Made by a program: the position numbers and the translations under genes
From: Kiritimatiella glycovorans
GTDB lineage: Bacteria > Verrucomicrobiota > Kiritimatiellia > Kiritimatiellales > Kiritimatiellaceae
Direction of reading: 5' to 3'
DNA: 32,000 nucleotides
Assembly (NCBI RefSeq): GCF_001017655.1
Contig: NZ_CP010904.1
Span: forward strand, 450,001-482,000
Shown: piece by piece, positions 946-28,920 of the stretch
How the letters are laid out: every line of letters begins with the position of its first letter
How positions within the stretch are numbered: position 1 is the stretch's first letter
The notes under the pieces: generated by a model
The model's database searches: none
What the model was told of the DNA's origin: nothing
What the model saw: only the letters and a program-made list of their open reading frames with translations

Positions 946-977
946 TGCGCCCCCGCACAAGGGGAGGAGGTGAGCCC

Positions 978-1802: not shown

Positions 1803-1825
1803 CCCTAACCGCTGTGGTGGTTCAT

Positions 1826-2042
1826 CTCCGGCGGGACGGCTTCCACGCCGTCCGAAAAGAGAGATCACAAATCCTGGAGGGACGGCTTCCACGCCGTCCG
1901 AAACGTATGATCACGTACGCCCTGGAGGGACGGCTGCCACGCCGTCCGTAACGTATGATCAGGTACGCCCTGGAGGGACGGCTTCCACGCCGTCCGAAAA
2001 GAGAGATCACGAATCCTGGAGGGACGGCTTCCACGCCGTCCG
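1826..2042 (+). repeat. Tandem array of 5 REP-like palindromic units (type A)
   Basis: There are five direct copies of CCTGGAGGGACGGCT[T/G]CCACGCCGTCCG at 1826-1854 (head degenerate), 1873-1900, 1921-1948, 1969-1996 and 2015-2042, with a period of 46-48 bp. The core is a 7-bp stem GGACGGC/GCCGTCC with a 6-nt loop. The ~20-nt linkers fall into two recurring types, AAAAGAGAGATCAC[A/G]AAT and [A/T]AACGTATGATCA[C/G]GTACG. Both linker types contain GATC. Confidence 0.9.
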
Positions 2043-2093
2043 TAAGGATGCCTTCAACCCCGCCCCCATTCACCCTTAAACCAAGGGAAACAC

Positions 2094-2849
2094 ATGGATG
2101 CTGGACAAATTAATAAAAATGACCCGCGACGGGATGGGCCCCGCCCGGGAAAGGAGGGACGTAATGGAAGCCGTGCCTCCAGGGAGAAGCCTGGCGAAAT
2201 GGCCTCCACGCGGTCCCAAGAATTGCAACCGGACCGAAAGACTCCGGCCCACACGCCGGTATATGAAACCGGAAATCGCGCTATCATTATATTTCTCACC
2301 GTCTGCACAAAGAACCGTCACCGCAAACTCGCGTGTGATGAAATACACTCGCTCCTGCTCAATGCCTGGAGTCTGGCGGATCGTTGGGTTGTCGGGCGGT
2401 ACCTGATTATGCCGGATCATCTACACCTCTTTTGCGCGCCGGGGATCTGGCCGCCTTCACCGGCGAGAAAATGGGTTGAATATTGGAAGGGGGCGGTGGC
2501 CCGAGCCTTGAAAGGGCGCGGCCCGCTCGTGGAGGGGAGGGGACGGGGTGGAACCCTGGGACGGGGTGGAACCCGTCCCTCCAAAGCAACCGAAGCGACG
2601 GCTGCCACGCCGTCCGTAACGTATGATCAGGTACGCCCTGGAGGGACGGCTTCCACGCCGTCCATAAAGAAGAAATGGCCGAGTCCCTTCTGGCAACGTG
2701 ACTGTTGGGACAGGCAGTTACGTCGCGGTCAGAGCTACAGCGAAAAATGGGCGTATGTCCAAAATAATCCCGTTCGGGCGGGGCTGTGTGCGACTCCTGA
2801 AGAATGGCCTTTCCAGGGATGCGTAACGGATTTGATGTGGCATGACTGA
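2094..2849 (+). CDS. REP-associated tyrosine transposase (RAYT; IS200/IS605 TnpA-like Y1 HUH enzyme) carrying an in-frame REP-derived insertion
   Basis: The first beta strand reads RAIIIFLTVCTKNR. The HUH motif is IMPDHLHLF (H109/H111). FWQRDCWDRQL follows, and the catalytic-Tyr helix is WAYVQNNPVRAGL (Y221). The spacing between HUH and Tyr is about 110 aa. It becomes about 62 aa, which is canonical, once the REP-derived segment (aa ~144-191) is removed. The start is uncertain: ATG 2094 gives the longest ORF, while ATG 2199 (M36) gives a more canonical N-terminus. Residues 1-45 are encoded by decayed REP sequence. Confidence 0.8.
   Translation: MDAGQINKNDPRRDGPRPGKEGRNGSRASREKPGEMASTRSQELQPDRKTPAHTPVYETGNRAIIIFLTVCTKNRHRKLACDEIHSLLLNAWSLADRWVVGRYLIMPDHLHLFCAPGIWPPSPARKWVEYWKGAVARALKGRGPLVEGRGRGGTLGRGGTRPSKATEATAATPSVTYDQVRPGGTASTPSIKKKWPSPFWQRDCWDRQLRRGQSYSEKWAYVQNNPVRAGLCATPEEWPFQGCVTDLMWHD
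2156..2216. repeat. Decayed inverted REP doublet overlapping the 5' end of the RAYT ORF
   Basis: GGGACGTAATGGAAGCCGTGCCTCC-AGGGAGAAGCCTGGCGAAATGGCCTCCACGCGGTCC is colinear with the doublet at 2892-2952 (GGGACGGGGTGGAACCCGTCCCTCC-AGGAGAAGCCCGGCGAAATGGCTTCCACGTTGTCC). Its hairpin potential is largely lost. Confidence 0.55.
2531..2663. repeat. Composite REP doublet (REPIN-like) located inside the RAYT coding sequence
   Basis: The element starts with a partial arm, GGGGACGGGGTGGAACCC (2538-2555). A reverse-orientation REP follows, GGGACGGGGTGGAACCCGTCCCTCC (2558-2582). Next is a forward REP with a degenerate head, GACGGCTGCCACGCCGTC (2597-2614). Then comes the type-2 linker TAACGTATGATCAGGTACG and a perfect forward REP, CCTGGAGGGACGGCTTCCACGCCGTCC (2637-2663). 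The architecture matches the element at 2851-2997. Confidence 0.85.
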
Positions 2850-2850
2850 A

Positions 2851-3021
2851 GGTGGAACCGGACGGGCTGGAACCGGACGGGGTGGAACCCGGGGACGGGG
2901 TGGAACCCGTCCCTCCAGGAGAAGCCCGGCGAAATGGCTTCCACGTTGTCCGAAAAGAGAGATCACGAGTCCTGGAGGGACGGCTTCCACGCCGTCCATA
3001 ACCAATGATCACGTACGCCCT
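2851..3021. repeat. REP cluster immediately 3' of the RAYT stop codon: stuttered arm repeats, one reverse REP, one decayed forward REP and one intact forward REP
   Basis: Three stuttered arm-plus-loop copies of GACGGG[C/G]TGGAACC lie at 2851-2891. The reverse REP lies at 2892-2916. A decayed forward copy ends at 2952. The linker AAAAGAGAGATCACGAGT follows, then the intact forward REP at 2971-2997, then the linker remnant ATAACCAATGATCACGTACGCCCTG ending at 3021. Confidence 0.85.
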
Positions 3022-3034
3022 GAATTTCCGCCTG

Positions 3035-4594
3035 TTACCCGGGAGCCGGGCAGTAGAGGTTCCTGTTTTTCTTAACCTGCCCGGCGTCGCCCTCGGCGGG
3101 GATCGCCGCGCGCACGGCGTCCCATCCCTCAAGCAATCGGTCGATCAGCGTCTCGACCACATCGGCATACGCCGGGTCTGCGGCGCGGTTGCGGTTTTCC
3201 TGCGGGTCGATCGCGTGGTCGTAGAGTTCGACGGAATCAATGGTGATCTCGTCGCGCGATTTCGGCAGCGGTCCGGGATTGCGCGGGGGCGCTTCGATCC
3301 ACAGGACCAGCCGGTACCGGTCGGTGCGCATGGCGTAGCCGGCGACTCCTTCGTTACGGCGCCCCATCACGCTGAAGGCCGCGGGCTTCCAGGCGCGATC
3401 GGGATCATCGAGCAGCGGAGCCATGCTGGTGCCGTGCAGGTGCTCCGGCTTATCCAGCCCGCACAGATCGCACAGGGTGGGGTAGAGGTCGACCAGTTCG
3501 ACGAGCGCGTCGCTCTCGCCGAGCGAACGGCCGGGCGGTGAGACGATCATCGCCGTGCGCGTATCGAGTTCGCAGTTGGAGAGCTTGCTCCACGCGTCGT
3601 GTTCGCCGAGCTTCCAGCCGTGATCGCCCCAGAGCACCACCACGGTGTTTTCCCGCAGCCCCAGGCGGTCGAGTTCCCGCAGGAGTTTGCCAATCTGGGC
3701 GTCGACGAAACTTACGCAGGCGCGGTAGCCGTGGATCAGTTTTTTCTGCATGGCGATATCGAGATTCCCCGTGTCGGTGTACTGCCCGAGCTCAAATCGG
3801 GGGTAGATCGCATAGGGCGGGGCGTCGATCGGATAGAACTGATTGTCCGGCAGCTCGATCGCCTCGCGGTCATAAAGATCCCAGTACCTCTTCGGCGCGA
3901 CAAAGGGGAGGTGCGGTTTAATGAATCCGGCGGCGAGGAAGAAGGGGCGGTTGCGCAATTCGCGCAGTTTAGCGATGGCGCGCGCCGCGATCTTTCCGTC
4001 GTAGAGCGTTTCGTCATCCACGTCCGGCGCCTCGGTGGAGAGCGCCGTCACAAAATGGTTCGTCCATTCGGACACGGGCACGCCCAGTTTCTTCGCCTGC
4101 GGCGCGAAATCCTTCTCGGCCGCCTCGATCCCCTCCGGCGTGTAATAGTACCGCGGGCCGGGATAGTAGTGCGGTTCCGACCAGCTCGTGTCCGGGTTCA
4201 TGTCCTGTCCCGGGCCGGCTTCTGCGAAACAGGGGTGGTAGATTTTACCCATCCCCGCCGCGTAATAGCCGTTGGTTTTGAACCATTCCGACAGGTGGGG
4301 GCGGCGATTCGGGTGGCCGGGCCGGATGCCGCTCATCAGGCTCTGACGCGAGGGTGCGCAGTGTGAGAACTGGCAGTAGGCCCGTGAGAAGCGCATCCCG
4401 CGTTCCGCCAGCGCGTCGATGTGCGGACTGTGGACTTCATCGTTTCCGTAACAGTCCAGCTCCGGCCGCAAGTCGTCGACCGCGATGAAGAGGACATTGA
4501 GCTGTTGGCCGGGCTTCGCACTCGCCGCCCGGCCGCCTGCCGCTGTCAGAGCCGAGAGGGCCGTGCCCCTCGCCAGAAAAGAACGTCGTTTCAT
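3035..4594 (-). CDS. S1-family sulfatase, iduronate-2-sulfatase-like, exported via Tat
   Basis: The twin-arginine signal is MKRRSFLARGTALSALTAAGGRAASA. The N-terminal sequence VLFIAVDDLRPELDCYGNDEVHSPHIDALAERG closely resembles IDS-type sulfatases. The formylglycine motif is SHCAPSRQSLMSG (C-x-P-x-R). A GGAGGAAGG RBS lies upstream of the ATG. Confidence 0.9.
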   Translation of the reverse strand: MKRRSFLARGTALSALTAAGGRAASAKPGQQLNVLFIAVDDLRPELDCYGNDEVHSPHIDALAERGMRFSRAYCQFSHCAPSRQSLMSGIRPGHPNRRPHLSEWFKTNGYYAAGMGKIYHPCFAEAGPGQDMNPDTSWSEPHYYPGPRYYYTPEGIEAAEKDFAPQAKKLGVPVSEWTNHFVTALSTEAPDVDDETLYDGKIAARAIAKLRELRNRPFFLAAGFIKPHLPFVAPKRYWDLYDREAIELPDNQFYPIDAPPYAIYPRFELGQYTDTGNLDIAMQKKLIHGYRACVSFVDAQIGKLLRELDRLGLRENTVVVLWGDHGWKLGEHDAWSKLSNCELDTRTAMIVSPPGRSLGESDALVELVDLYPTLCDLCGLDKPEHLHGTSMAPLLDDPDRAWKPAAFSVMGRRNEGVAGYAMRTDRYRLVLWIEAPPRNPGPLPKSRDEITIDSVELYDHAIDPQENRNRAADPAYADVVETLIDRLLEGWDAVRAAIPAEGDAGQVKKNRNLYCPAPG

Positions 4595-7342: not shown

Positions 7343-7376
7343 CCCGGGAAATCAGAGCTCGGTTTCGTCGACGAAC

Positions 7377-9686
7377 TCAGCGATTGGGATGGGTTCGGAC
7401 CTGGTAATAGATCTGCGGGCGAGTCCGAAAATCTTCGGGAAGGACAAAATAATTCGGGGTTTTCTGGTGATAGGCCTCCAGTTCGTACCAGACCGGTGAA
7501 ACAATATTGGTTGTATAGAGAAGCGAGAACCAGTGGGCTTCGCAGGAGGGGTCGTCGATTTCGGGGAAATAGATCCGCCAATCGTCCGCGCGTTCGATTT
7601 TCGTGATACGAAGCCTGTCAGAAGAATCCTGAGGGTCGGTGCCCGCATAAGCCTCGCCTCGATTGTTGACTCCGTCCCGGTCGGCGTCCTCAGCCGCGTC
7701 GTCGCGCGTTAACTCGAGGCCGTGCAGGTATTCCCATTCATCGCCCATTCCGTCCCCGTCGGAATCCGCCCATATCTTCAGGTATTCGTAAGCCCCGATG
7801 TCTTGCGCCGCCGTGCCGTTGTTATCCCCGTCCAGCGGTCGCGGGTATCCCCGGTAATCCACCGTCACCACCGACCCGGTTGCGGCGTCGATACAGGGAG
7901 AGGCGCTGTCGAGCCCGTAGTATGTAAAGGCCAGAAAAAGTCGCGGATCCTCCTCGAGGTTGTTCGTCCCGTTGGTGGGCGCCGTGCAGCAGTACTCAAG
8001 CGTGGACAAGGCATGATTGGTTGAATTCCCGACGTAGGTAAGCCGGTTGCCCCAGAGGATCGAGTTGGTTGCTGTGCAGTCGTAGAGGCCGCCGCCCCCG
8101 TGGGTATGGGCCTTGTTTTCCGTCACGGTACAGTGAAGCAATGTTCCGCTGTGTACGCCTCCGCCGGCATCCATGGCGTGGTTCCGGAAAATCTCGCAGT
8201 TGACCAGCGCCGTACCGTACGCCCCGCCGCCGAGCCCGCTTACCAGTGTCGTGCCGTATCCGCGTTCCGCCATGTTGTCGTGGATACGGCAGCGTTCGGC
8301 CGTGCCTTCGTACAGCCCCCCGCCGTTACCCGCCGTGGCCGCCGTGTTGGACGCGACATCACATTGCACTAGCCGCGACTGATACGCGCCGCCGCCCCGG
8401 CCATAATAGTCACGATCCGCTCTGTAGCCCGTTCCGGCCACGTTCTGAATGATCGTACAGCCCGCCAGATCGCCTCCGCTGCAGCCCCCGCCCCAGTGCG
8501 CGCGGTTGCCGACGACGAGACAGTCGTAGAGGTCAGAGGAGAGCGCCCCGCCGCCCCGGGTGTGTTCCGCGGCATTGGTGGCGTAGTTCGCCCGCAGCGT
8601 ACAGTTGCTGAGCGTGGAATCATAACTGCCGCCGCCGCGGTACCAGGCCATATTGGTTTGAATGATACTGTCAAAGACGGTGCACTGGCTCACCCCGCCC
8701 CCCAGGCCGTTGTAGACCCCGGTAGAGGGATTGTCTCCCACTTCATTCGCGCCGATCACGGTTTCATGAATTTCGCATTGGTAGGCGCCGCCACCTTTTC
8801 CCCAGCCGTAATTCTCCGTAATCGTACCGCCGTAGATCATGCAGTTCGCCGCCCCGCCGCCCCGGCTGGCGGTATTGCCGTTGACGCTGCAGTCCTGCAG
8901 CATGCTCTCCCGCGCGCCGCCGCCGGCATACTCGGCGTCGTTGGCCGTGAAGGTGCACTGGATATTCGTCCCCCCCCACGCACCCCCCCCGCCATAATCA
9001 AAACCATATTGAGTCTGGTCATTGTGGGCCAGAATCGTATTGGTCGCATAGGATCGACCCACTCCGCCGCCGTGGTAAAAGGCTGTATTGCTGGTTACGA
9101 CACAGCTGATCAGACGACATTCGTCGGCGCCTCCTCCGTGTGCCGAGGAGCATCGGCGGATCTCACATTCGGTTGCGGTCACTCCAAAAAGCCCGCCACC
9201 TATGAACGCGTGGCAGTCTTCGACGATGCAGTCGATTACCTCCGCTGCAGAATCGCCCCGCACCCCGCCACCTTCGGCCCCGCTGGCCATTCCGTCGGTC
9301 AGGGTAAACCCCTGCAGTACGGCGTTACTGCAGATGTCAGCACACCGTACCGAGCCGGCTCCCGCGATAAACGTGTTCGCGGGGCCCTCCTCCGAGCGGA
9401 CGACCACCGGATGGTCCAGAAGCACACGAGTCATTTCGCCGTCGCCGGCCGCTCGGGATCCGGCGTCATAGGTCCCGGCCGCCACGCGGATCGTGTTGTG
9501 GTCGTCGGCCTCATCGATGGCCTGCTGGATTTCGTGGGCGGCGGTATCCCACGTCTCGTAGGGCGGGGTGGGTGTGGGGCTGTCGATATCGACATACAGG
9601 GTGCGGGCCGCGGCGGAAAACATGGCCGATAAGATCAGGACCCCGCAGAAAGCCCGGGTGTAAAGACGAGTGGGCCGATGCATCAT
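7377..9686 (-). CDS. Secreted right-handed beta-helix repeat protein (Pmp-like / choice-of-anchor-Q-like) with Ca-binding TSP3-like repeats and a C-terminal beta-rich module
   Basis: The signal peptide is MMHRPTRLYTRAFCGVLILSAMFSAAA, and an AGGAGG RBS is present. About 17 repeats of ~22-25 aa are centred on GGG[AGV] (HGGGADEC, AGGGARES, RGGGAANC, KGGGAYQC, RGGGAYQS and others). The C-terminal region reads DSDGDGMGDEWEYLHGL...DADRDGVNNRGEAYAGTDPQD. Confidence 0.75.
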   Translation of the reverse strand: MMHRPTRLYTRAFCGVLILSAMFSAAARTLYVDIDSPTPTPPYETWDTAAHEIQQAIDEADDHNTIRVAAGTYDAGSRAAGDGEMTRVLLDHPVVVRSEEGPANTFIAGAGSVRCADICSNAVLQGFTLTDGMASGAEGGGVRGDSAAEVIDCIVEDCHAFIGGGLFGVTATECEIRRCSSAHGGGADECRLISCVVTSNTAFYHGGGVGRSYATNTILAHNDQTQYGFDYGGGGAWGGTNIQCTFTANDAEYAGGGARESMLQDCSVNGNTASRGGGAANCMIYGGTITENYGWGKGGGAYQCEIHETVIGANEVGDNPSTGVYNGLGGGVSQCTVFDSIIQTNMAWYRGGGSYDSTLSNCTLRANYATNAAEHTRGGGALSSDLYDCLVVGNRAHWGGGCSGGDLAGCTIIQNVAGTGYRADRDYYGRGGGAYQSRLVQCDVASNTAATAGNGGGLYEGTAERCRIHDNMAERGYGTTLVSGLGGGAYGTALVNCEIFRNHAMDAGGGVHSGTLLHCTVTENKAHTHGGGGLYDCTATNSILWGNRLTYVGNSTNHALSTLEYCCTAPTNGTNNLEEDPRLFLAFTYYGLDSASPCIDAATGSVVTVDYRGYPRPLDGDNNGTAAQDIGAYEYLKIWADSDGDGMGDEWEYLHGLELTRDDAAEDADRDGVNNRGEAYAGTDPQDSSDRLRITKIERADDWRIYFPEIDDPSCEAHWFSLLYTTNIVSPVWYELEAYHQKTPNYFVLPEDFRTRPQIYYQVRTHPNR

Positions 9687-9814
9687 GACCTCCTGTCAGG
9701 CTGAAACAACCGAGGGGGGCAGGTGCCACGCCGCGCAGCACTACACACAAACTCCACCCCTTGATGCCTGTACGCTATACCTGTTTATAACAGGAGTCAA
9801 TTGGCTTTCAGCGA

Positions 9815-9946
9815 TTCTCATTATGGCTTCACCCTTTTCGGTCGGGGTGGCACCCGACCCTCCCAGTGCCCGAAAATGCGTCGGATATCGACTCGGGAGG
9901 GACGGCTGCCACGCCGTCCGCGGTCGGAATGCGGCCATAATGAGAA
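9815..9946. repeat. Head-to-head REP pair (9840-9863 reverse, 9895-9920 forward) nested inside a 13-bp perfect inverted repeat
   Basis: The reverse REP is GGTCGGGGTGGCACCCGACCCTCC, with stem GGTCGGG/CCCGACC. The forward REP is GGGAGGGACGGCTGCCACGCCGTCCG. The flanking inverted repeat is TTCTCATTATGGC (9815-9827) and GCCATAATGAGAA (9934-9946). Confidence 0.8.
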
Positions 9947-10040
9947 CTGCTGATTGGCTGTTTGCTGTTTGAGATTGTTCCGCAATCCGTCATACTGAGC
10001 GTCCGCGTTCAAAACCCCCGCGAAAGGAGCGAGTGAAGTC

Positions 10041-10457
10041 ATGAAAAGTTATCGCAAGGAACTCTGGTTTCAGACCGGCCACCGTCGTGAGTACGTCAAC
10101 ATCACCCCGCAGGTGCGTGAGTGTCTGCGCGAGAGCGGAGTCAAGGAGGGGCTGTGTCTCGTCAATGCCATGCATATCACCGCGAGTGTGTTCATCAACG
10201 ACGACGAGGGCGGCCTGCACCGCGATTTCGAGCGCTGGCTGGAGAAACTCGCGCCCGAGAAGCCGCACAGCCAGTACGACCATAACGGGTTCGAGGACAA
10301 CGCCGACGCGCACATGAAGCGTCAGGTGATGGGCCGCGAGGTCGTCGTGGCGGTCACGGAGGGCGACTTCGACTTCGGGCCCTGGGAACAGATCTTTTAC
10401 GGCGAGTATGACGGCAAGCGCCGCAAGCGCGTCCTGGTCAAAATCATCGGGGAATGA
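10041..10457 (+). CDS. yjbQ: YjbQ/UPF0047 family protein (secondary thiamine-phosphate synthase-like)
   Basis: The protein is 138 aa. It shows the typical family pattern: VNITPQVRE...[20 protein letters not shown]...[52 protein letters not shown]. An AAGGAG RBS is present. Confidence 0.85.
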
Positions 10458-10494
10458 TCGAAATGAACCGCGTCTTTTCCCCGGAAATGAGCTG

Positions 10495-12723
10495 ATGAGT
10501 GAATCCACGAGCGCCCGGTACGCCCGGGTCGTTACCGATCTCGCGCTGGATCGCGAATTCGACTACCGCATTCCGCCGGAATTGAAGGAGCGCGTGCGGG
10601 AGGGTTCGCTGGTTCGCGTTCCGTTCGGGCCGCGCGAGCTGCGGGGCTGGGTCACGGGACTGACCGACAGGGCAGAGGTCGATCCGGGCAAAATCAGGGA
10701 CCTCCTCGAGGTGGAGGGGGACCGTCCTTTTCTGCTGCCCGTGGTGCGGCGACTGGCGCGCTGGATGGCCCGCTACTACTGCGCCCCGATCGAGACCGCC
10801 TTCCGCACCGTGCTGCCCGGCGCCGTGCGCCGTGAGGGGGCCCGCCCCCGACAGCAGCTCACGGCTTCGATCGTCGAAAACGCCGCCGGGGAGGACGGCG
10901 AAACGATCACGGCCAAGCAGGAGCGGGTCCTGGACATCCTGCGCGAATCCGGGCCGCTGACCCTGACGGAGCTGACCCGGCGGGCGGGCACGTCCCAGGC
11001 GCCGGTGCGCAGTCTGGCGAAAAAGGGAAGGATCGAACTCAAGTACGCGGATCTGCGCCGCGACCCGCTGGCGCGGCGCCCGGTGCTGCGCGTCGATCCG
11101 CCGGAATTGATGCCGCAGCAGCGTGATGCGCTCGAGCGCATCCGGGAGGCCTCGGATTCCGGCCAGCCGCGCGTGCTGCTGCTTCACGGCGTGACCGGCT
11201 CCGGCAAGACCGAGGTCTACCTGCAGGCGATCCGCCATGTCATCGACCACGGCCGCAGCGCGATCGTGCTCGTGCCCGAGATCGCGCTGACGCCGCAGAC
11301 CGTAGACCGCTTCCGCTCGCGGTTCGGCGACCGGGTCGCGGTGCTGCACAGTCATCTCTCCGACGGCGAGCGGTTTGACGAGTGGGGGAGGATCCGCGAC
11401 GGCAAGGCCGATATCGTGGTGGGTGCCCGGTCGGCCGTCTTCGCTCCGCTTGAGAAGCCGGGCCTGATCGTGGTCGATGAGGAGCACGAATCGAGCTACA
11501 AGCAGGAAGAGGCGCCGCGCTATCATGCCCGCGATGTCGCCGTGGTGCGCGGCCGGATGGAATCGTGCCCTGTCGTACTCGGCTCGGCGACGCCCTCGCT
11601 TGAGTCGCTCAGCAACGTCCGCAAGGGGAAATACGAACTGCTCGGCATGCCTTCGCGGGTGGACGACCGCACCATGCCGAGAATCAGGGTGGTGGACATG
11701 CGTGTGGAGGCGGAGCGCGAGGGGAAACCGGTCGTGTTCTCGCGTCTGCTGATCGAGGAGATCCGCGCGCGGCTCGAGCGCGCCGAGCAGACCATCCTCT
11801 TCCTCAATCGGCGTGGATTCTCCTCTTCGCTGATCTGTCCCCAATGCGGGCACGTGGCCCAGTGCGACCGTTGCAGCGTATCGATGACCTACCACAAGAA
11901 GGACCGGCGTCTGAAATGCCATCTCTGCGGCGCGGAGGTTCGCGTGCCGGAACGGTGTCCGAACGCCGACTGCCGTTCGCCGGAGTTCAAGTATGCGGGC
12001 ATGGGCACCGAGCGGATCGAGGAGATTCTCGGCCGGCTGCTCAAGGGGGCGCGGATACGAAGGGTGGATTCCGACACCATGCGCGGGAAGGAATCCTACG
12101 ACGAGGTGCTCGGCGATTTCCGCACCGGCAAACTCGATCTGCTGGTCGGCACCCAGATGCTCGCCAAGGGGCTGGATTTTCCGAACGTGACGCTGGTCGG
12201 GGTGATCAATGCCGACATCTCGCTGCACATGCCGGATTTCCGCGCCGGGGAGCGGACCTTCCAGCTGCTCACGCAGGTCGCGGGGAGGGCCGGGCGGGGC
12301 GAGGTCGAGGGCGAGGTGGTCGTGCAGACGTTCACGCCCTACGAGACCTCGATTCAGGCCGCGCGCCGGATGGCGTGGGAGGAGTACTGCGACCAGGAAC
12401 TCGAATTCCGCAGGGAGCTGTCCTACCCCCCGCACAGTCACCTCGTCTGCATTCACTTCGAGGGACCCGGCGAGGCCACGGTCCACGAGGCCGCGGACCG
12501 TTTTGCGCAGGAACTCGTCCGGCGCCTCCCGGAAACGGTGATCCTCAGCGGCCCCGCTCCCGCGCCGCTGGCGCGCATCAAGGGCCAATACCGCTACCAC
12601 CTGCTGCTGCGCGCGGAAAAGACCGCGTCCATGACCCGTCCCCTCAAGGAGCTGATGTCCGATTACCGCTTCCCCCGGGGGATCAGTTGTCGCGTGGACG
12701 TCGACGCCCAGTCGCTCTTATAG
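10495..12723 (+). CDS. priA: Primosomal protein N' (replication restart helicase PriA)
   Basis: The N-terminal 3'-DNA-binding region reads ARVVTDLALDREFDYRIP. Walker A is GVTGSGKT and the DEEH box is VVDEEHESSYKQ. The Cys-rich zinc insert is CPQCGHVAQCDRCSVSMTYHKKDRRLKCHLCG...CPNADC. GTQMLAKGLDFPNVTLVG is also present. The longest ORF starts at 10408, inside yjbQ. ATG 10495 (MSESTSARYARVV) is the more likely start. Confidence 0.9.
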   Translation: MSESTSARYARVVTDLALDREFDYRIPPELKERVREGSLVRVPFGPRELRGWVTGLTDRAEVDPGKIRDLLEVEGDRPFLLPVVRRLARWMARYYCAPIETAFRTVLPGAVRREGARPRQQLTASIVENAAGEDGETITAKQERVLDILRESGPLTLTELTRRAGTSQAPVRSLAKKGRIELKYADLRRDPLARRPVLRVDPPELMPQQRDALERIREASDSGQPRVLLLHGVTGSGKTEVYLQAIRHVIDHGRSAIVLVPEIALTPQTVDRFRSRFGDRVAVLHSHLSDGERFDEWGRIRDGKADIVVGARSAVFAPLEKPGLIVVDEEHESSYKQEEAPRYHARDVAVVRGRMESCPVVLGSATPSLESLSNVRKGKYELLGMPSRVDDRTMPRIRVVDMRVEAEREGKPVVFSRLLIEEIRARLERAEQTILFLNRRGFSSSLICPQCGHVAQCDRCSVSMTYHKKDRRLKCHLCGAEVRVPERCPNADCRSPEFKYAGMGTERIEEILGRLLKGARIRRVDSDTMRGKESYDEVLGDFRTGKLDLLVGTQMLAKGLDFPNVTLVGVINADISLHMPDFRAGERTFQLLTQVAGRAGRGEVEGEVVVQTFTPYETSIQAARRMAWEEYCDQELEFRRELSYPPHSHLVCIHFEGPGEATVHEAADRFAQELVRRLPETVILSGPAPAPLARIKGQYRYHLLLRAEKTASMTRPLKELMSDYRFPRGISCRVDVDAQSLL

Positions 12724-20789: not shown

Positions 20790-22235
20790 ATGGCGGATGA
20801 CCCTGCGGTGAAAAAAGGACACGCACACCACAAGACGGCGGACAAGGACCGCGTGGGGCTTGGCCGCAAGATCGCCTACGGTTTCGGCGGGCTGGCCGAG
20901 AACACCATGCACAACGCGGTCAACAACATGGCCAACCCGGTGTTCAATGTCGGCTTCGGGGTCGCACCCACCCTGCTCGGAATCGCCACCTTTATCTTCC
21001 GGCTGTGGGACGCCATGACCGACCCGTTCATGGGGGTCATCAGCGACCGCACCCGCACGCGCTGGGGACGCCGCCGGCCGTATATCGTCCTCGGCGCCGT
21101 GTTCTCCGGGCTCTTTTTCGCCATGATCTGGTGGTGCCCGCGCGATATGAGCGAGGCGGCGTATTTCGGCTGGTTCCTCGTCTCGGCTCTCCTGTTCTAC
21201 ACCGCCTTCACCGTGTTCGGCGTACCGTACCTGGGAATGGGCTACGAATTGAGCCCGGACTACCATGAGCGGACGCGGATCATGTCGTTCCGCACCTGGT
21301 TCGCGTCGGTCGGCGGATTCTGTATCCAGTGGCTGTTCTGGCTGACCCAGCGCGATATGTTCGACGACACCATCGAGGGGATGCGCTACGTGGGGCTTGG
21401 CGTGGGCCTGCTGCTTATCGTCACGGCGGCGGCCCCCGGCCTCTTCATCAAGGAACGTCCGATCTCCGAGGTGGAGGGGAAGAAAACCCGGGCGAGCCTC
21501 ACGTTCGGAAGCGTGATCTCGGTGTTCAGGGTCAAGCCGTTCCGGTACATCTTCGGCGCGCTGATCGCCGCGGTCGCCGGGATGTTCACCGTCATTATTC
21601 TCGGATTCTACATCAACGTCTATTACCTCTTCGACGGCGATCTCAAGGCGGCCTCGACGGTGATCGGGGTCAGCGGCTCGTTTTACCACATCTGCTGCCT
21701 GCTTTCCGTGCCGATGATCGCGGCCGTCGCCACACGGATCGGCAAGAAGGGGACGCTGCTGATCTTTATCGGCCTTGCCGTGATCGGCACCTTGCTCAAG
21801 TGGTATCTCTACCTGCCCGAAGCGCCGTATATGCAGCTCATCGTCGTGGCGCTCATGGCACCGGGGCTGTCGGCGGTATGGACGCTGCTCGCGGCGATGA
21901 ACGCGGACGTGACGGATGTCGACGAACTGGAGCGCGGCGTACGCCGCGAGGGATCGTTCGGTGCAATCTTCAACTGGACACTGAAGCTCGGCTTCGCCGT
22001 GTGTTTTCTGCTGGCGGGGATCATCCTCGAAGCCACGGGGTTCAACGAGCAGCTCGGCGGCAACCAGCCCGAAGGCACCATCACCGCCATTCGCGCACTG
22101 TACACGCTCGTGCCCGCGAGCGGCCTGGTGATTTCGATGGTGATTATCTGGTTCTATCCGATCGACGAGGACAAGGCGTACGAGACGCGCAACAAGCTTG
22201 AAGCGATCCGTGGCGAGCAGGAGGTCGAGGCTTAA
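20790..22235 (+). CDS. GPH-family (glycoside-pentoside-hexuronide:cation symporter) MFS transporter, copy 1
   Basis: The GPH signature is RLWDAMTDPFMGVISDRTRTRWGRRRPYI. About 12 hydrophobic helices are present. A GGGAGG RBS lies before ATG 20790. Confidence 0.85.
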   Translation: MADDPAVKKGHAHHKTADKDRVGLGRKIAYGFGGLAENTMHNAVNNMANPVFNVGFGVAPTLLGIATFIFRLWDAMTDPFMGVISDRTRTRWGRRRPYIVLGAVFSGLFFAMIWWCPRDMSEAAYFGWFLVSALLFYTAFTVFGVPYLGMGYELSPDYHERTRIMSFRTWFASVGGFCIQWLFWLTQRDMFDDTIEGMRYVGLGVGLLLIVTAAAPGLFIKERPISEVEGKKTRASLTFGSVISVFRVKPFRYIFGALIAAVAGMFTVIILGFYINVYYLFDGDLKAASTVIGVSGSFYHICCLLSVPMIAAVATRIGKKGTLLIFIGLAVIGTLLKWYLYLPEAPYMQLIVVALMAPGLSAVWTLLAAMNADVTDVDELERGVRREGSFGAIFNWTLKLGFAVCFLLAGIILEATGFNEQLGGNQPEGTITAIRALYTLVPASGLVISMVIIWFYPIDEDKAYETRNKLEAIRGEQEVEA

Positions 22236-22243
22236 TCTTGGCC

Positions 22244-23674
22244 ATGCACGGACATCGGCAAAAGCATCATAAGACGGCGGCCAGGGACCGTGTAGGCTTC
22301 GGCGGCAAGGTGGCGTACGGACTCGGCGGGCTGGCCGAGAACACGATGCACAACGCCGTCAATAACCTCGTCATGCCGATTTATAATATCGGCTTCGGCG
22401 TCTCTCCCGTCCTGCTGGGCATCGCGGCGAGCATTTTCCGCCTCTGGGATGCCATGACCGATCCGGTCATGGGGGTGATCAGCGACCGTACCCGTACGCG
22501 CTGGGGACGCCGCCGCCCGTATATCGTACTCGGCGCGATCTGCGCCGGGGTCCTGTTCGCGATCATCTGGTGGTGCCCGCGGGGCATGAGCGAAATCGCC
22601 TACTTCACCTGGTTCCTCGTCTCGGCGCTCCTGTTCTACACGGCGTTCACGGTCTTCGGCGTCCCCTACCTGGGACTCGGGTACGAGTTGAGTCCCGACT
22701 ACCACGAACGCACACGGGTGATGTCGTTCCGCACCTGGTTCGCGTCGATCGGCGGCATCCTGATGCAGTGGCTGTTCTGGATGACCCAGCGGCCGGTGTT
22801 CGACGACACGATCGAGGGCATCCGCACGGTGGCCATCGGCGTGGGCGTGGTTCTGATTATCACGGGAATAGCTCCGGGCCTCTTTCTGCGTGAGCGACCG
22901 ATCCCGGCCGCGGAAGAGCGGAACACGCGCAGCCGGATCAACCTGGCCAGTATCGCCTCCGTCTTCAAGGTCAAGCCCTTCCTCTATATCTTCGGGGCCC
23001 TCATCTCCACGGTGACGGGGATGTTTATGGTGGGCATGCTGGGATTCTATATCATCGTTTACTATCTCTTCGCCGGCGACCTGGGTGCGGCCTCCTTCGT
23101 CGTCGGCGTCAGCGGCTCCACGTATCACGTCTGCTGCCTGCTCTCGGTCCCGCTCATCTCCTGGACCTCGTCGCGGATCGGTAAAAAGGGTGCCCTCCTC
23201 ATCTTTATCGGCCTCGCCGTGGTCGCGACCCTCCTGAAGCTCGTGCTCTACACACCGGAGAACCCGTACCTGCACCTGATCGTCATCGGGATGATGGCGC
23301 CGGGGCTGTCGGCGGTATGGACGCTGCTCGCGGCGATGAATGCGGACGTGACGGACGTGGACGAGCTGGAGCGCGGCGTGCGTCGCGAGGGGTCGTTCGG
23401 CGCGATCTTCAACTGGACGATGAAGCTGGGATTCGCCGTGTGTTTTCTGATCGCGGGGCTGATCCTGGAGGCGACGGGGTTCGACGAGGCCCTCGGCGGT
23501 GACCAGGCGGAGCACACGCTGCTGGCGATGCGCATCCTCTTCTCGCTCGTGCCCGCCGCCGGCCTGCTGATCTCGATGGTCCTGATCGCCCTCTATCCGA
23601 TCAATGAAGAGAAGGCCTATGAAGTGCGGGCGAAACTCGAAGCGATTCGCGGAGAGCAGGAGGCGGCCACATAA
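22244..23674 (+). CDS. GPH-family MFS transporter, copy 2 (tandem paralogue)
   Basis: The same signature is present (RLWDAMTDPVMGVISDRTRTRWGRRRPYI). By eye it is about three-quarters identical to copy 1 across the full length. It starts 9 nt after the copy-1 stop, and an alternative TTG start lies at 22238. Confidence 0.85.
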   Translation: MHGHRQKHHKTAARDRVGFGGKVAYGLGGLAENTMHNAVNNLVMPIYNIGFGVSPVLLGIAASIFRLWDAMTDPVMGVISDRTRTRWGRRRPYIVLGAICAGVLFAIIWWCPRGMSEIAYFTWFLVSALLFYTAFTVFGVPYLGLGYELSPDYHERTRVMSFRTWFASIGGILMQWLFWMTQRPVFDDTIEGIRTVAIGVGVVLIITGIAPGLFLRERPIPAAEERNTRSRINLASIASVFKVKPFLYIFGALISTVTGMFMVGMLGFYIIVYYLFAGDLGAASFVVGVSGSTYHVCCLLSVPLISWTSSRIGKKGALLIFIGLAVVATLLKLVLYTPENPYLHLIVIGMMAPGLSAVWTLLAAMNADVTDVDELERGVRREGSFGAIFNWTMKLGFAVCFLIAGLILEATGFDEALGGDQAEHTLLAMRILFSLVPAAGLLISMVLIALYPINEEKAYEVRAKLEAIRGEQEAAT

Positions 23675-23749
23675 GCAGACGGGCCGCCGCCATTGCGCGC
23701 AGGGGCGAAGGGCTGCGTTTTTGAGCCAAACCGGAAAAAAGGAGGGACC

Positions 23750-25237
23750 ATGAATCGTGCTGATTTTCTGAGCCTGTCGGCGATGACCGGGGCCGCGGCG
23801 GTGCTGCGGCCGGGGATGATGAACGGCGCAACGGGCTTTCGAAACGTCCTTATCTTTACGGTGGACGACATGGATTACATGTCGCCGAATTTCGCCGGCT
23901 TTCCCGTCAAGGACGGGCTTACGCCGAATATGGACCGGCTCGCAAGCGAGGCGCTCTACTTTTCCCGCGCCCACGTGAGCTGTGCGGTCTGTCAGCCGGC
24001 GCGGCAGTCGACCATGACAGGCAAGCACCCGCACGTGAACGGATCGATGGGATTCGTGTCGGTGCCGGAAGGTGTCCCCAGTCTCCCGGAAATTCTGATG
24101 CGGCACGGCTGGTTCACGGGTTCGACTAACAAGGGCCGCGATTACAGGTCGTTCGAGTGGTCCCACTTCATTCCGGGTCACGGCGGTCGCGGATTCGGCC
24201 GCGTACCGGAAATGCTGGCCGGTGACGTGAAGACGTTCATCGGGGAGGCGCGCAAAGAGGAGAAACCTTTCTTTATCGGCGTGCACACCGGCGATCCGCA
24301 CCGCGGATTCCCGGGCAGCGAGCAGTCGAAACAGAAGGTGCAGAAGGTGAAGGAGGATTTTCCGCAGGCGAAGGACCGGATTTTCGCGGCGGATTACGAC
24401 GACGTCTGCAGTCCGTCCGAGGCCTGGATACCCCCGTACCTCCCCCAGCTTCCCGCGATCCGCAGGGAGATGGCACAGTACTATAACGGCGTTCATCGTG
24501 CGGACCAGTCGCTGGGCGCCGTGTTGAAAACACTGGAGGCCGAAGGCGTGCTGGAGGAGACCCTCGTGGTCTTCTACAGCGATAACGGGGCTTCGTTCCC
24601 CACGTCCAAACAGAACTGCTACCCGTACTCGACCCGGACGCCGCTGCTGCTGCGCTTTCCGGGCGCGAAGGGCGGGGGGCGCGTCGACCGCGACCATTTC
24701 GTGAGCACCATGGACGTGATGCCCACGATCCTGGATATCCAGGGGCTGCCCGCGCCGAAGGATATCAACGGCCGCTCGCTCGTGCCGCTGTTCAGGGGCC
24801 GTCCGCAAAAGGGCCGCGATCACATCTTCACCACCTACAACTACGTCAAACCCGGCGTGCAGGTGTGCCCGAAACGCGCCATCCATACAAAGAAATACTC
24901 ATATATCTTCAACCCGTGGCCGGACGGCGAGACGGAGACGCGCGGGGAGCGGCAGAGCGGTTTGACGTTTGCCGCCATGCAGGCGGCGGCGGAGACGGAC
25001 GAAGATCTGGCCGAACGGGTGGACTTTATCCTGCACCGGACGCGCGAAGAACTCTACGACCGGGAAAAGGATCCCTGGTGCCTGAACAACGTGATCGACG
25101 ACCCGGACTACGCCCGGGCGAAGAAAAACATGAAGGCGCTGATGGAACGCGAGATGCGCACAACCGGCGACCCGCTCCTGAGCGCGTTTCTCGAAGGAGG
25201 ATCGTTCCCGGCGGAATGGTCGGAGTTCAAGGGATGA
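23750..25237 (+). CDS. S1-family sulfatase, N-sulfoglucosamine sulfohydrolase (SGSH)-like
   Basis: An AGGAGGG RBS is present. The N-terminus MNRADFLSLSAMTGAAAVLRPG looks like a Tat signal but has a single Arg. LIFTVDDMDY is present. The formylglycine motif is CAVCQPARQSTMTGKHPH. The SGSH-like blocks GDPHRGF, PPYLPQLPAIRREMAQYY, VVFYSDNGASFP and ELYDREKDPWCLNNVIDDP are present. Confidence 0.85.
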   Translation: MNRADFLSLSAMTGAAAVLRPGMMNGATGFRNVLIFTVDDMDYMSPNFAGFPVKDGLTPNMDRLASEALYFSRAHVSCAVCQPARQSTMTGKHPHVNGSMGFVSVPEGVPSLPEILMRHGWFTGSTNKGRDYRSFEWSHFIPGHGGRGFGRVPEMLAGDVKTFIGEARKEEKPFFIGVHTGDPHRGFPGSEQSKQKVQKVKEDFPQAKDRIFAADYDDVCSPSEAWIPPYLPQLPAIRREMAQYYNGVHRADQSLGAVLKTLEAEGVLEETLVVFYSDNGASFPTSKQNCYPYSTRTPLLLRFPGAKGGGRVDRDHFVSTMDVMPTILDIQGLPAPKDINGRSLVPLFRGRPQKGRDHIFTTYNYVKPGVQVCPKRAIHTKKYSYIFNPWPDGETETRGERQSGLTFAAMQAAAETDEDLAERVDFILHRTREELYDREKDPWCLNNVIDDPDYARAKKNMKALMEREMRTTGDPLLSAFLEGGSFPAEWSEFKG

Positions 25238-25276
25238 GCCCGGGGAGGATCCTTCATTCAGCCGATCCCTCCATCT

Positions 25277-25587: not shown

Positions 25588-28500
25588 ATGAATAGAAACT
25601 GGACCCTCTGGGCCGTCGCGGCCCTTACCGCATCCACACTTTGTGCCGGCGCGGCCGGCGGTGCGCCGCGCGATGCCCTGGAAGCCGGATTCGCCGAACC
25701 CCCGCCGGAAACCCGTCCTTACGTGTTCTGGTACTGGGTCAACGGTCACATTACGGAGGAGGGCCTCGACGCGGATTTGGACGGGTTCGTGGACGCGGGC
25801 GTCGGCGGGGTGTACATCCTGAACGTCATGCGCATGTTCCCGAAGGGGCCGGTCGAGTTCAACTCGCCCGAGGGGATGGCCCTGATCAAGCACGCCATTC
25901 GGGGCGCGGGCGAGCGGGGGCTCGAGGTGGTCCTCTACAACGGCGCGGGCTGGTCGTCGAGCGGCGGGCCGTGGATTACCCCCGAATACGCGATGCAGAA
26001 ACTGACCTGGAGCGAGACGCGCGTGCAGGGCGGGAAGAAGGTGGAACGGGTGCTCGCCCGGCCGCCGGTCATCGAGACCTACCGCCCGGAGTTCTTCGGT
26101 CCGGAAGAGACGCTCGACTGGTATCGCGACGTGGCCGTTCTCGCCTTCCCCACGCCGGAAGCTGAGCAGGCCCTGCCCGGCGAACCGGAAATCACGGCCA
26201 ACGATCCGGACTTCGACTCTTCAAAGCACGGACACCCTTCGCCGTATGTCTTTTCGCGGCTGAAGACCTCGGCGGAAAAGGCCGGGGAGATCGTGCTCGA
26301 ATATCCCGAACCGTTCACCGCCCGCAGCGTGCGGCTCGACGTGCACCGGAGCTGTACGCCGACCATTCGTGAGGGATTCCTCTTCGCCTCGGACGACGGC
26401 GAGTCGTGGCGCGAGGTGCGGTCGTTTCCGATGGGGGACCGAATGCCGGTCGAGGCGCCCTTCGCCCCCGAGCACGCCCGGTTCTGGAAACTCCGGTTTC
26501 CGCTCGAGCGCGGGGCGGGCGAGGTCCGGTTGACCGGGCTCGCCGTGCAGCCCGGGTACCGCATCGAAGACGGATCGGCCAAGGCCATGTTTCACGACCA
26601 CGGGCTCGATGACCCCGCGCCCGCGTTTTCCTCGCCCGCGCCGGAGAAAGACGCGGTGATCCCCTTGAACCACGTGATTGATCTCTCGGAGCATATGGAT
26701 GCCGAAGGGCGACTCAGCTGGAAGGCCCCGCCCGGCGACTGGACCATCCTGCGCCTCGGACGCACCCCCACCGGCGCGCTGAACTCGAATCCGGCCTACG
26801 GCGGCAGCGGGCTCGACTGCGATAAACACCGCGCCGAGGCGGTGGACTTTCAGTGGCGTCACGCGCTGAGCCCCTACTTCGACGACCCGGATGTCGCCCC
26901 GCACATCGACGGGGTGCATATCGACAGCTGGGAGGTCGGCGCGCAGAACTGGTCGCAGGGATTCGGCGAGGCCTTCGAGCAGCGGACGGGCTACGACCTG
27001 CGCCGGCTGCTGCCGGTGATGACCGGTCGGGTGGTCGGCGACCTGGAGATTTCCGAGCGCTTTCTCGGCGATGTGCGGCGGGTGGTGACCGGGTTGATCG
27101 CGGACGAGTATTTCGCGCACACCCGTGACCGGGCGGCCGAAGCGGGCGCGCTGTTTTCAAACGAACCCTACCACCAGAACCAGTTCGACTCGTCCGACGC
27201 GGGGATGCGGGTCGACGTGCCGATGTGCGAGGTCTGGCGCGGGGACCGGGTCACGCCGGCGTTCTGGGCGAAACTGGGCGCTTCCCCCGCTCACGTCGCG
27301 GGGAGGAACATCGTCGGCTGTGAGTCGTTCACGTCCAATACGCGTCCGGAGGACGGCGGTGACTGGTCGACGGATTTCGACGATCAGAAGCTGACCGCGA
27401 ACGTGATCTTTGCGGGCGGGGTGAACCGGATGGTTTTTCACGTGAGCGCGCACCAGCCGTGGATGAACGTCGTGCCCGGCATGACCGTCGGGGGCTGCGG
27501 CCAGCATTTTGAGCGGACGAATCCGCTCTGGTGTCACGGCGCGCCGGCGTTTAACCGTTACGTCTCGCGCTGCCAGTATCTCCTGCGGCAGGGACGTTTC
27601 GTCGCCGATGTGCTGTACTCGTGCGGAGAGGATTCACCGAGCAAGTCACTGGACGTGAAGGGGGATCTGCATCCGGGGCGCGGGCTGGACTACGACGTCT
27701 GCAGCCCGGAGATCATCCTGCGCGATCTGAGCGTGGAAGACGGCGATCTCGTCCTGCCGCACGGCATGCGCTACCGGCTGCTGGTGCTGCCCGACCGTCC
27801 GGCGATGAGCCTCGCCATGGCACGTAAGCTGGAGGAACTGCTCGAAGCCGGGGCGACGATCGTGGCCGCCCCGCCGGAACGGACGACCGGTCTGTCCGGT
27901 TATCCGGATTCGGACGCCGCGTTGAAGCGGCGGGTCGAGGAGATCTGGGGCGAAGGCCGGGCATGCCCCGATGCGGGTCGACGCGTGGGGCAGGGGACCC
28001 TGTTCTGGTGGCGGCCGGTCAGTGAGATCGTTGCGCGGATGGATATTCCGCCCGATTTCCGCGCGCCCGTCCCGGATCCGCGGACGCCCTACCTGCACGT
28101 CCACCGCCGCATGGAGGACGGAACCGAGATCTACTTTGTGGCCAATACGCAGCGGAAGGAAGCGGAGGACGTCGACTGCGCTTTTCGGGTCACGGGAAAA
28201 CGGCCCGAGCTGTGGGACCCCCGGACCGGGGAGACGCGTCCGTTGCCCGAATATTCCGTCGAAGGGCCGATGATTCGTGTGCCGCTGGATTTTGCCCCGC
28301 TGGAGTCGTACTTCGTGCTCTTTCGTGAGGCGGGTGCGGCGGAACCGTCCGCGGAGGTCAATTTTGCGGAACGGCCCGTGATGCGCGAGATCGGCGGTCC
28401 GTGGCGGGTCTCGTTCGACCCCGAATGGGGCGGACCGGAGTCGGTGATGTTTGCGGAGCTTACGGACTGGCGCGATCATGAGGACAAGGGCGTCCGCTAC

Positions 28501-28920
28501 TACTCCGGAACTGCGGTGTACCGGCGCACGTTCGAAATGGCGCAGGTGGAGGCGGATCGGCGCATGTTCCTCGACCTGGGCCGTGTCGAGAACGTGGCGA
28601 CGGTGCGGCTCAACGGCCGCGAGCTGGGGACCGTATGGTGCGCGCCGTGGCGGGTCGAGGTGACGGGGGCGCTGCGCGAAGGGAAGAACCGGCTTGAGAT
28701 CGAGGTCAGCAATCTGATGGTCAACCGCATGATCGGCGACGAGCAGTTGCCGCTGGACTACGAGCGCGATGCGCGCGGATGGCCGAAAAGCATTCCCGAA
28801 TGGGTGACCGGGGATAAAAAGCGCCCCAGCGGGCGATATACTTTCGCCACGTTTACTCCCTGGAAAGAGGACTCGGAACTTCTGCCCTCCGGGCTGCTCG
28901 GACCGATGCGTATCAGGTAG
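25588..28920 (+). CDS. Large secreted glycoside hydrolase, GH106-like (alpha-L-rhamnosidase family) with a C-terminal GH2-type sugar-binding-like domain
   Basis: A signal peptide is present. The N-terminal motif FAEPPPETRPYVFWYWVNGHITEEGLDADLDGFVDAGVGGVYI is characteristic of the ~1100-aa GH106-type proteins as I recall them. The C-terminal region reads GPWRVSFDPEWGGP...YYSGTAVYRRTF...LDLGRVENVATVRLNGRELG...GKNRLEIEVSNLMVNRMIGD. An AGGAG RBS is present. Confidence 0.55.
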   Translation: MNRNWTLWAVAALTASTLCAGAAGGAPRDALEAGFAEPPPETRPYVFWYWVNGHITEEGLDADLDGFVDAGVGGVYILNVMRMFPKGPVEFNSPEGMALIKHAIRGAGERGLEVVLYNGAGWSSSGGPWITPEYAMQKLTWSETRVQGGKKVERVLARPPVIETYRPEFFGPEETLDWYRDVAVLAFPTPEAEQALPGEPEITANDPDFDSSKHGHPSPYVFSRLKTSAEKAGEIVLEYPEPFTARSVRLDVHRSCTPTIREGFLFASDDGESWREVRSFPMGDRMPVEAPFAPEHARFWKLRFPLERGAGEVRLTGLAVQPGYRIEDGSAKAMFHDHGLDDPAPAFSSPAPEKDAVIPLNHVIDLSEHMDAEGRLSWKAPPGDWTILRLGRTPTGALNSNPAYGGSGLDCDKHRAEAVDFQWRHALSPYFDDPDVAPHIDGVHIDSWEVGAQNWSQGFGEAFEQRTGYDLRRLLPVMTGRVVGDLEISERFLGDVRRVVTGLIADEYFAHTRDRAAEAGALFSNEPYHQNQFDSSDAGMRVDVPMCEVWRGDRVTPAFWAKLGASPAHVAGRNIVGCESFTSNTRPEDGGDWSTDFDDQKLTANVIFAGGVNRMVFHVSAHQPWMNVVPGMTVGGCGQHFERTNPLWCHGAPAFNRYVSRCQYLLRQGRFVADVLYSCGEDSPSKSLDVKGDLHPGRGLDYDVCSPEIILRDLSVEDGDLVLPHGMRYRLLVLPDRPAMSLAMARKLEELLEAGATIVAAPPERTTGLSGYPDSDAALKRRVEEIWGEGRACPDAGRRVGQGTLFWWRPVSEIVARMDIPPDFRAPVPDPRTPYLHVHRRMEDGTEIYFVANTQRKEAEDVDCAFRVTGKRPELWDPRTGETRPLPEYSVEGPMIRVPLDFAPLESYFVLFREAGAAEPSAEVNFAERPVMREIGGPWRVSFDPEWGGPESVMFAELTDWRDHEDKGVRYYSGTAVYRRTFEMAQVEADRRMFLDLGRVENVATVRLNGRELGTVWCAPWRVEVTGALREGKNRLEIEVSNLMVNRMIGDEQLPLDYERDARGWPKSIPEWVTGDKKRPSGRYTFATFTPWKEDSELLPSGLLGPMRIR

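Follow-up and report, generated by a model that had tools for sequence, protein, structure and literature searches.

Within a 32,000-nucleotide stretch of the Kiritimatiella glycovorans genome (NZ_CP010904.1, positions 450,001 to 482,000 of the forward strand; this whole stretch is called the window, and positions are counted from its first letter), a gene of the REP-associated tyrosine transposase (RAYT, or TnpAREP) type carries, in frame and between its catalytic motifs, a cluster of the same repetitive extragenic palindromes (REPs) that lie on either side of it. The cluster lies where the gene encodes the loop that joins helix alphaC to strand beta4, and comparison with related sequences makes it likely that it is a tolerated, translated and disordered loop in a probably functional RAYT, the REP content of which turns over with the local REPs. 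The observations that carry this reading are the REP identity of the segment, the preservation of the reading frame across lineages, the conservation of the catalytic residues and of the C-terminal half of the protein, the prediction of a loop and of disorder, and a REP content that matches the flanks of the host gene.

The gene, an open reading frame (ORF) of 251 aa at 2094..2849 on the plus strand, is by its motifs and profile matches a RAYT/TnpAREP-type HUH-Tyr enzyme, and its product is 100% identical to a K. glycovorans protein that NCBI names "Transposase". The metal-binding histidines that characterize RAYT/TnpAREP proteins are found in an HUH motif, H109-L-H111 (codons 2418..2426, plus strand), and both are invariant across three homologue alignments. 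The homologue alignment places the catalytic tyrosine at Y221 (codon 2754..2756, plus strand) in a Y-V-Q-N-N-P-V motif of the Y-x3-NP type, and the WQ pair is found at W200-Q201. Against the NCBIfam model REP_Tyr_transpos (NF047646), the protein with its insert matches in two stretches (67.2 bits, E = 1e-18); when aa 144-191 are removed and M36 is taken as the start, the match becomes a single stretch over profile positions 11-145 of 146 (75.2 bits, E = 5e-21). A phmmer comparison matched the E. coli TnpAREP (4ER8) at E = 3e-4 and showed the insert to fall immediately before the IWQ strand with its WQ motif. The AlphaFold2 model, built with 119 homologues, has a mean predicted local distance difference test (pLDDT) score of 80, with a core above 90, and displays the TnpAREP fold; its best PDB match by Foldseek is 4er8_A (E = 1.7e-6, TM-score 0.65, target-normalised). 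In this model alphaC comprises residues 124-139 and beta4 residues 200-208, with residues 140-199 in between as coil, and pLDDT is about 46-55 across roughly residues 150-190, in the insert region. The insert is thereby predicted to be a disordered excursion of the alphaC-beta4 loop in a RAYT fold that is otherwise canonical.

The repeats share a 24-nt core, GGAGGGACGGCTTCCACGCCGTCC, for which the 32-kb window holds 16 matches (three mismatches or fewer) against 0 expected. Read as a hairpin, the core has GGAG as its foot, GGACGGC/GCCGTCC as a 7-bp stem and six nucleotides in its loop (TTCCAC in the upstream array). Since the stem variants among the window copies are compensatory (GGACGGC/GCCGTCC, GGACGGG/CCCGTCC, GGTCGGC/GCCGACC and GGTCGGG/CCCGACC, all pairing), these GGAG-footed repeats behave as a REP family. 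The REP-derived insert runs from 2520 to 2675 (plus strand; aa 143-194), lies in the alphaC-beta4 loop and exceeds insert-free relatives by 52 aa. Within it, a stutter at 2541..2558 (minus strand; seen as an 18-nt repeat at 2540-2574), which duplicates part of the reverse REP arm over 18 nt, is followed by three core matches: a reverse REP at 2559..2582 (minus strand) with the stem variant GGACGGG/CCCGTCC, a forward REP at 2592..2615 (plus strand) of which the foot, GAAGCG, is degenerate and the stem-loop intact, and a forward REP at 2640..2663 (plus strand) that is exact to the window consensus. The arms 2559-2583 and 2639-2663 are 92% complementary and constitute the inverted pair expected of a REPIN (REP doublet forming hairpin); the minimum free energy fold pairs 2559-2582 with 2640-2663 in a long, REPIN-like hairpin, with z = -4.2 both as DNA and as RNA. 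The translated insert is rich in Gly, Thr, Ser, Pro and Arg, and ATEATAATPSVTYDQVRPGGTASTPSIK is a predicted tryptic peptide of the protein stretch encoded by 2520-2675.

The gene is flanked by cognate REPs, as is typical of RAYT genes. Core matches and repeat comparison define an upstream array of five forward REPs with a spacing of 46/48 nt at 1830..2041 (plus strand), as well as a 3' composite element at 2852..3000 (plus strand) made up of a stuttered arm (2852-2892), a reverse REP (2893-2916), a decayed forward REP (about 2928-2951) and a further forward REP (2974-2997); additional copies are found in the window at 9840-9919 and 25275-25543. The internal stretch 2594-2670 is 96% identical over 77 nt to 1926-2002 of the upstream array, and 2541-2583 is 98% identical over 43 nt to 2875-2917 downstream. 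Insert and 3' element align colinearly, in the order stutter, reverse REP, spacer, forward REP, linker, forward REP. The copies within the ORF depart from the extragenic location by which REPs and REPINs are defined; the other window copies are intergenic.

An earlier note on this DNA had proposed that REP sequence lies within the RAYT gene between the HUH motif and the tyrosine, that it shares the architecture of the 3' element, and that it preserves the frame and introduces no stop codon. The three GGAGGGACGGCTTCCACGCCGTCC matches inside the ORF, the colinear alignment and the translation of 2520-2675, which is in frame with zero stops, bear out each of these points. The extent of the segment stands in part: 2523-2666 does correspond to 48 aa (P144-I191), but the 52-aa peptide quoted for it is encoded by 2520-2675, and 52 aa is the true excess. 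Likewise, removal of the segment together with a start at M36 gives a protein of 168 aa, close to the 170 or so claimed, and the HUH-to-Tyr spacing of the family is about 58 aa and not 62. The proposal that the 5' end of the ORF (aa 1-45) derives from a decayed copy of the same doublet also holds. A decayed REP doublet at 2139..2219 (plus strand), with a reverse arm at 2157-2180 and a decayed forward arm at about 2195-2216, shows 86% identity to 2918-2954, and its arm 2157-2184 is 86% complementary to a forward REP. This doublet makes up an unconserved N-terminal extension of the ORF (pLDDT 54-61 over aa 1-40), and because conservation with homologues starts near aa 46, M36 (position 2199) is a plausible true start.

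The comparison with homologous proteins is of particular interest. The distance that separates WQ from the end of the HUH motif was measured in the 120 best homologues and came to 34 aa (range 30-34) in about 85 of them, as against 86 aa in K. glycovorans. In the remaining 35 or so it is 40-105 aa, the extra residues being REP-encoded peptides such as GGTASTPS, GRGGTRPS and GPGGTGPS. Insert-bearing proteins that are only about 50% identical to each other nevertheless keep all the invariant residues, including H109, H111, W200, Q201 and Y221, and their C-terminal half is strongly conserved (WQRDCWDxQLRRGESYxEKWxYVxxNPVRAGL). When the proteins are placed in a neighbour-joining tree, those with the Kiritimatiella-type insert form a single large clade, with about 24 members, and a few small ones. 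Since a clade of such divergence retains the catalytic residues and a conserved C-terminal half, the insertion is unlikely to have killed the gene. In the insert-bearers of the Kiritimatiella-type clade, a K-G-x-G-P-L motif ends alphaC just before the REPs (2508-2537 in the window, and in the homologues); five DNAs vary at the third codon position of the proline, so that the motif appears to be conserved at the protein level, which suggests a helix cap or a loop exit and not a DNA element.

The DNA-level comparison covered 80 loci listed from Verrucomicrobiota, Kiritimatiellia and Lentisphaerae, the K. glycovorans locus not being among them. The N- and C-terminal halves of each gene were placed separately by split tblastn, independently of gene calls (anchoring by regular expressions on the HUH and WQ motifs had failed on 25 of the 80). 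Extra DNA of 24-328 nt lies between the halves in 20 of the 80 loci listed; 19 of these keep the frame, and in none of the 20 does the insert contain a stop. With a chance of 1/3 for each locus, the probability of at least 19 in-frame inserts out of 20 is about 1e-8, for loci that are not wholly independent of one another but nearly each of which has a different insert length. It is on these loci that the argument rests, because the K. glycovorans insert is open in three of the six frames and its single open frame is therefore weak evidence.

In every insert-bearing locus except one (L053), the insert follows alphaC, in the alphaC-beta4 loop. In the lineages compared for REP content, the insert is made of the lineage's own REPs, and its 12- to 16-mers recur up- and downstream of the same gene; the 12-mers shared number, for example, 100 of 178 in L008, 73 of 172 in L009 and 85 of 220 in L011. 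REPs are present in this region of the gene in about 7-8 clades. A GGAGGG foot is common to the lineages and the stems are lineage-specific: the GGAG(GG) foot is kept, with differing stem and loop, around RAYT genes of the Planctomycetes-Verrucomicrobia-Chlamydiae (PVC) group at loci L001, L002, L004, L005, L008, L009, L011, L024, L053, L061 and L071. From these sequences it appears to be a foot that, in PVC bacteria, corresponds to the GT[AG]G of classical REPs. A conserved insert peptide was considered and ruled out, the encoded peptides being unrelated (GGTASTPS, RVDARPPVAA, DGVEPVPPGG, AHGRAALVA) and the codon phase of the REP foot varying. For the same reasons, selection would act on the open frame only.

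L081, which encodes homologue P0002 and is the closest relative with DNA examined, has the same three-site REP layout as K. glycovorans, with a 5' doublet, an internal reverse and forward REP, and a 3' reverse REP. The insert of L081 is shorter by 66 nt, the difference being the 18-nt stutter and one 48-nt REP unit. The reverse REP is nearly identical between the two, and the whole alignment, mostly coding DNA, has about 76% identity. Alignment with orthologues, by which the earlier note had hoped to see whether the segment is absent from related genomes, gave a divided answer: many relatives lack it, and others have a segment at the same position that comes from the REP family of their own genome. 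The note had named a homologous segment in orthologues from genomes lacking this REP family as grounds for rejecting its account, and this needs rewording because each segment comes from its own REP family. The same fact confirms the REP origin of the segment and makes its presence a recurrent or persistent state and not a one-off event.

We propose that the K. glycovorans gene is a REPtron, that is, a RAYT gene together with its cognate REPs, in which GGAG-footed REPs stand 5', 3' and, as a third cluster, inside the gene itself. The internal cluster amounts to a REPIN-like inverted pair with an extra forward REP and a stutter, set in the codons of the alphaC-beta4 loop, and would be translated as a disordered loop of about 52 aa that leaves the HUH-Tyr catalytic core intact. 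The insert state is probably old in the clade, and it recurs in RAYT genes of other PVC lineages. Selection would remove alleles with a shifted frame or an added stop, and repeat units would be gained, lost, duplicated and homogenised with the REP clusters that lie within 350 bp on either side; because repeat content would turn over with the neighbouring REPs in this way, the insert would always resemble the current REP family of its host. We infer that RAYT action, slippage or gene conversion drives this turnover, that the alphaC-beta4 loop is used as the structurally permissive site of a gene located in a REP hot spot, and that the protein is made and active. The suggestion in the earlier note that the enzyme may tolerate a 48-aa loop is well in keeping with these results: many relatives, too, have REP sequence in frame at this loop, neither the catalytic motifs nor the C-terminal half has lost its conservation, and the loop is predicted to be disordered.

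Several points weigh against a tolerated loop in a functional enzyme. With or without the insert (67.2 and 75.2 bits, respectively), the protein scores below the curated NF047646 cut-off of 80 bits, although the matches are still significant, and the Pfam model PF01797 (Y1_Tnp) gives 13.3 bits with the insert and 18.8 without, for a gathering score of 23 bits. Protein production and activity are predictions from sequence. In E. coli TnpAREP, alphaC and WQ contact the REP and its foot (PMC3479197, PMC6006769), and since the loop adjoins both, a 52-aa insert might affect DNA binding. In addition, the internal REPs are as well preserved as the extragenic copies; given this preservation, neutral tolerance of an old insert requires turnover or homogenisation, the mechanism of which is hypothetical.

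The good preservation of the internal REPs leads to an alternative that we regard as unlikely though worth weighing, namely that they also act in cis, either by autoregulation, in which a hairpin in mRNA or single-stranded DNA, or binding or cleavage by the RAYT, would throttle expression, or as a protected master copy that would allow enzyme and substrate to be inherited together. The long hairpin described above would suit such a role, as would the canonical state of the internal REPs, one of them an exact copy of the consensus, the near identity of the reverse REP with that of L081 in an alignment of much lower overall identity, and the presence of REPs in the same gene region of so many clades. 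Moreover, the E. coli TnpAREP has been described as auto-inhibited and strongly down-regulated (PMC3479197). However, most RAYTs of the same family do without the insert, with their spacing fixed at 34 aa, so that the REPs are not required, and REP copy number, orientation and phase vary freely. A promoter and terminator scan of 1700-3200 found nothing; with no terminator-like site in this interval, there is no support for the internal REPs as intrinsic terminators. The conservation of the REPs could equally well result from homogenisation, since other REP clusters lie at a distance of less than 350 bp. To a more specific form of the idea, in which the in-gene REPIN is a selected cis element, autoregulatory or a master copy, of a PVC-specific RAYT lineage, housed in loop codons beside the REP-recognition helix, we give less credence still. 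If it were true, a REPIN acting as master copy could force RAYT and REP to co-evolve, and this would explain how different REP families come to lie in one loop and stay canonical.

The earlier note had also raised the possibility that the transposase was hit by its own mobilised element and inactivated, so that the gene would be a pseudogene caught early in decay. This can readily be imagined for a foreign segment of 52 aa between the catalytic motifs and beside the REP-recognition region, in a protein that scores under the curated cut-offs of its family models, and one relative, the Lentisphaerae locus L059, does appear disrupted, being out of frame with part of its C-terminal half duplicated. 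We nevertheless consider decay unlikely for K. glycovorans, where the frame is intact and free of stops and none of the invariant residues has been lost; the insert goes back to the ancestor of a clade of at least about 24 proteins that has diverged to about 50% identity with its C-terminal half conserved (WQRDCWD...YVxxNPVRAGL), and all but one of the 20 insert-bearing loci are in frame. As for L059 itself (3146-3917), the alphaC-beta4 insert is in frame, but beyond the WQRDCWD strand the frame shifts and part of the C-terminal half occurs a second time; this RAYT homologue is likely a genuine pseudogene. Finally, an assembly collapse or expansion, which many near-identical repeats of 24-48 nt within 1.2 kb might invite, is hardly credible in a finished genome assembled from PacBio RSII and Illumina data (CP010904; PMC5148204), given repeats far shorter than long reads and independent assemblies of other organisms with the same layout.

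In-frame REP insertions in RAYT genes are already published. Quentin, Siguier, Chandler and Fichant (2018, BMC Genomics 19:475, PMC6006769) reported them in tnpAREP genes of subclass 2.4 (Bertels group 4), where they vary in length and sequence and are read by these authors as a peripheral loop with little impact, and some members of subclasses 2.7 and 2.8 also have REP insertions; the alphaC-beta4 region, according to the same work, lies next to the structural elements that take part in recognising the REP. The K. glycovorans gene resembles subclass 2.4 in having an in-frame REP insert, and WQ and a Y-x-x-N-N-P-type tyrosine motif are common to both. In contrast, the HUH motif is NH[IFV]H in subclass 2.4 and DH[LIV]H here (DHLH in K. 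glycovorans; clade consensus MPDH[ILV]H[LF]F), so that the HUH part of the subclass signature is lacking. The tyrosine motifs, YIxNNP there and YVxNNPV here (YVQNNP), are close. The insert lies between beta3 and alphaC in subclass 2.4 (their Table 1) and between alphaC and beta4 here, and the foot is GT[AG]G there, of a long or double-foot type, and GGAG here, with a stem starting GG. In this comparison by listed motifs, foot and insert position, three features of subclass 2.4 are thus absent, and the gene may belong either to that subclass or to a separate one. Quentin et al. (2018) list no comparable REP with a GGAGGG foot in their manual REP table, nor do six PVC genome codes that were looked for occur in it. 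Only L053 among the insert loci matches the subclass 2.4 loop: in this locus of the Tepidisphaeraceae (Planctomycetota), a REP-derived, in-frame insert of about 75 aa (1892-2170) lies between the HUH strand and alphaC.

The E. coli TnpAREP (4ER8; Messing et al. 2012, PMC3479197) shares with the K. glycovorans protein the HUH-Tyr fold, WQ, an Arg aligned with R104 and Y-x3-NP, and its gene, too, is flanked by cognate REPs with a 5' tetranucleotide foot. It differs in having no REP-derived insert and a GTAG instead of a GGAG foot; identity is 15%, and the Kiritimatiella protein is described here from sequence and model. In-frame intragenic REPs have been described in many genes, with Opitutus terrae (Verrucomicrobia) ranking highest for intragenic GTAG REPs (Di Nocera et al. 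2013, PMC3733652). These and the Rickettsia palindromic elements are likewise in-frame palindromic repeats in seemingly functional genes, for which linkers or loops have been proposed; here, in contrast, the host gene is the presumed transposase of the REP itself, and the same loop is filled by different REP families across lineages. A literature search for RAYTs in Kiritimatiella or Verrucomicrobia found nothing specific. The phenomenon is thus one published in 2018, and the present case, with its PVC clade and different loop, is arguably a variant of it.

RAYT-REP systems are among the leading examples of co-evolution between a domesticated transposase and its non-autonomous repeats, and across a whole PVC clade the gene for the enzyme hosts the enzyme's substrate, in frame and in a loop beside the REP-recognition region. 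Current views are not overturned by this finding, which adds to what was observed in 2018 by including further phyla, GGAG as a new foot and another loop. The natural length variants, with 0 to about 70 extra residues, are well suited to testing the weight of the alphaC-beta4 loop in REP recognition. There is also a lesson for annotation, in that such genes score under curated cut-offs, are given no label more precise than "transposase" or "hypothetical", and have ORFs made too long by N-terminal extensions built from REPs. REPs are largely stop-free in several frames and for this reason spawn spurious ORFs as well as inflated N-termini. Long ORFs run through the REP clusters of the window at 1822-2073 (minus strand), 2407-3132 (minus strand) and 2842-3075 (plus strand), among them a 241-aa antisense ORF across the RAYT gene.

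The neighbours of the RAYT gene in the window are a gene for an AraC-family regulator (942-1802, plus strand) and a sulfatase gene (3035-4594, minus strand). The gene of the closest homologue (L081-L083) directly follows a gene for an N6/N4 DNA methyltransferase, the stop of which it overlaps. Because the two have different neighbours, genomic context is not conserved. Elsewhere in the window, 9840-9919 holds an inverted, REPIN-like REP pair between ORFs 7377..9686 and 9990..10508 (both minus strand); a 100-aa ORF at 9670..9972 (plus strand) overlaps the pair and is probably spurious and REP-encoded. The intergenic array at 25275-25543 consists of about seven forward REPs of a variant family, GGAGGGACGGGTTACACCCCGTCC, with a 33-nt period, and ends in one reverse REP with the stem GGTCGGC/GCCGACC; it is flanked by a long minus-strand ORF (22232..24886) and a plus-strand ORF of 1110 aa (25588..28920). 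Outside K. glycovorans, a single Verrucomicrobia contig (L049) carries two insert-free RAYT homologues in tandem within 1.4 kb (6004-6465 and 7329-7790), an unusual arrangement in a family described as typically single-copy.

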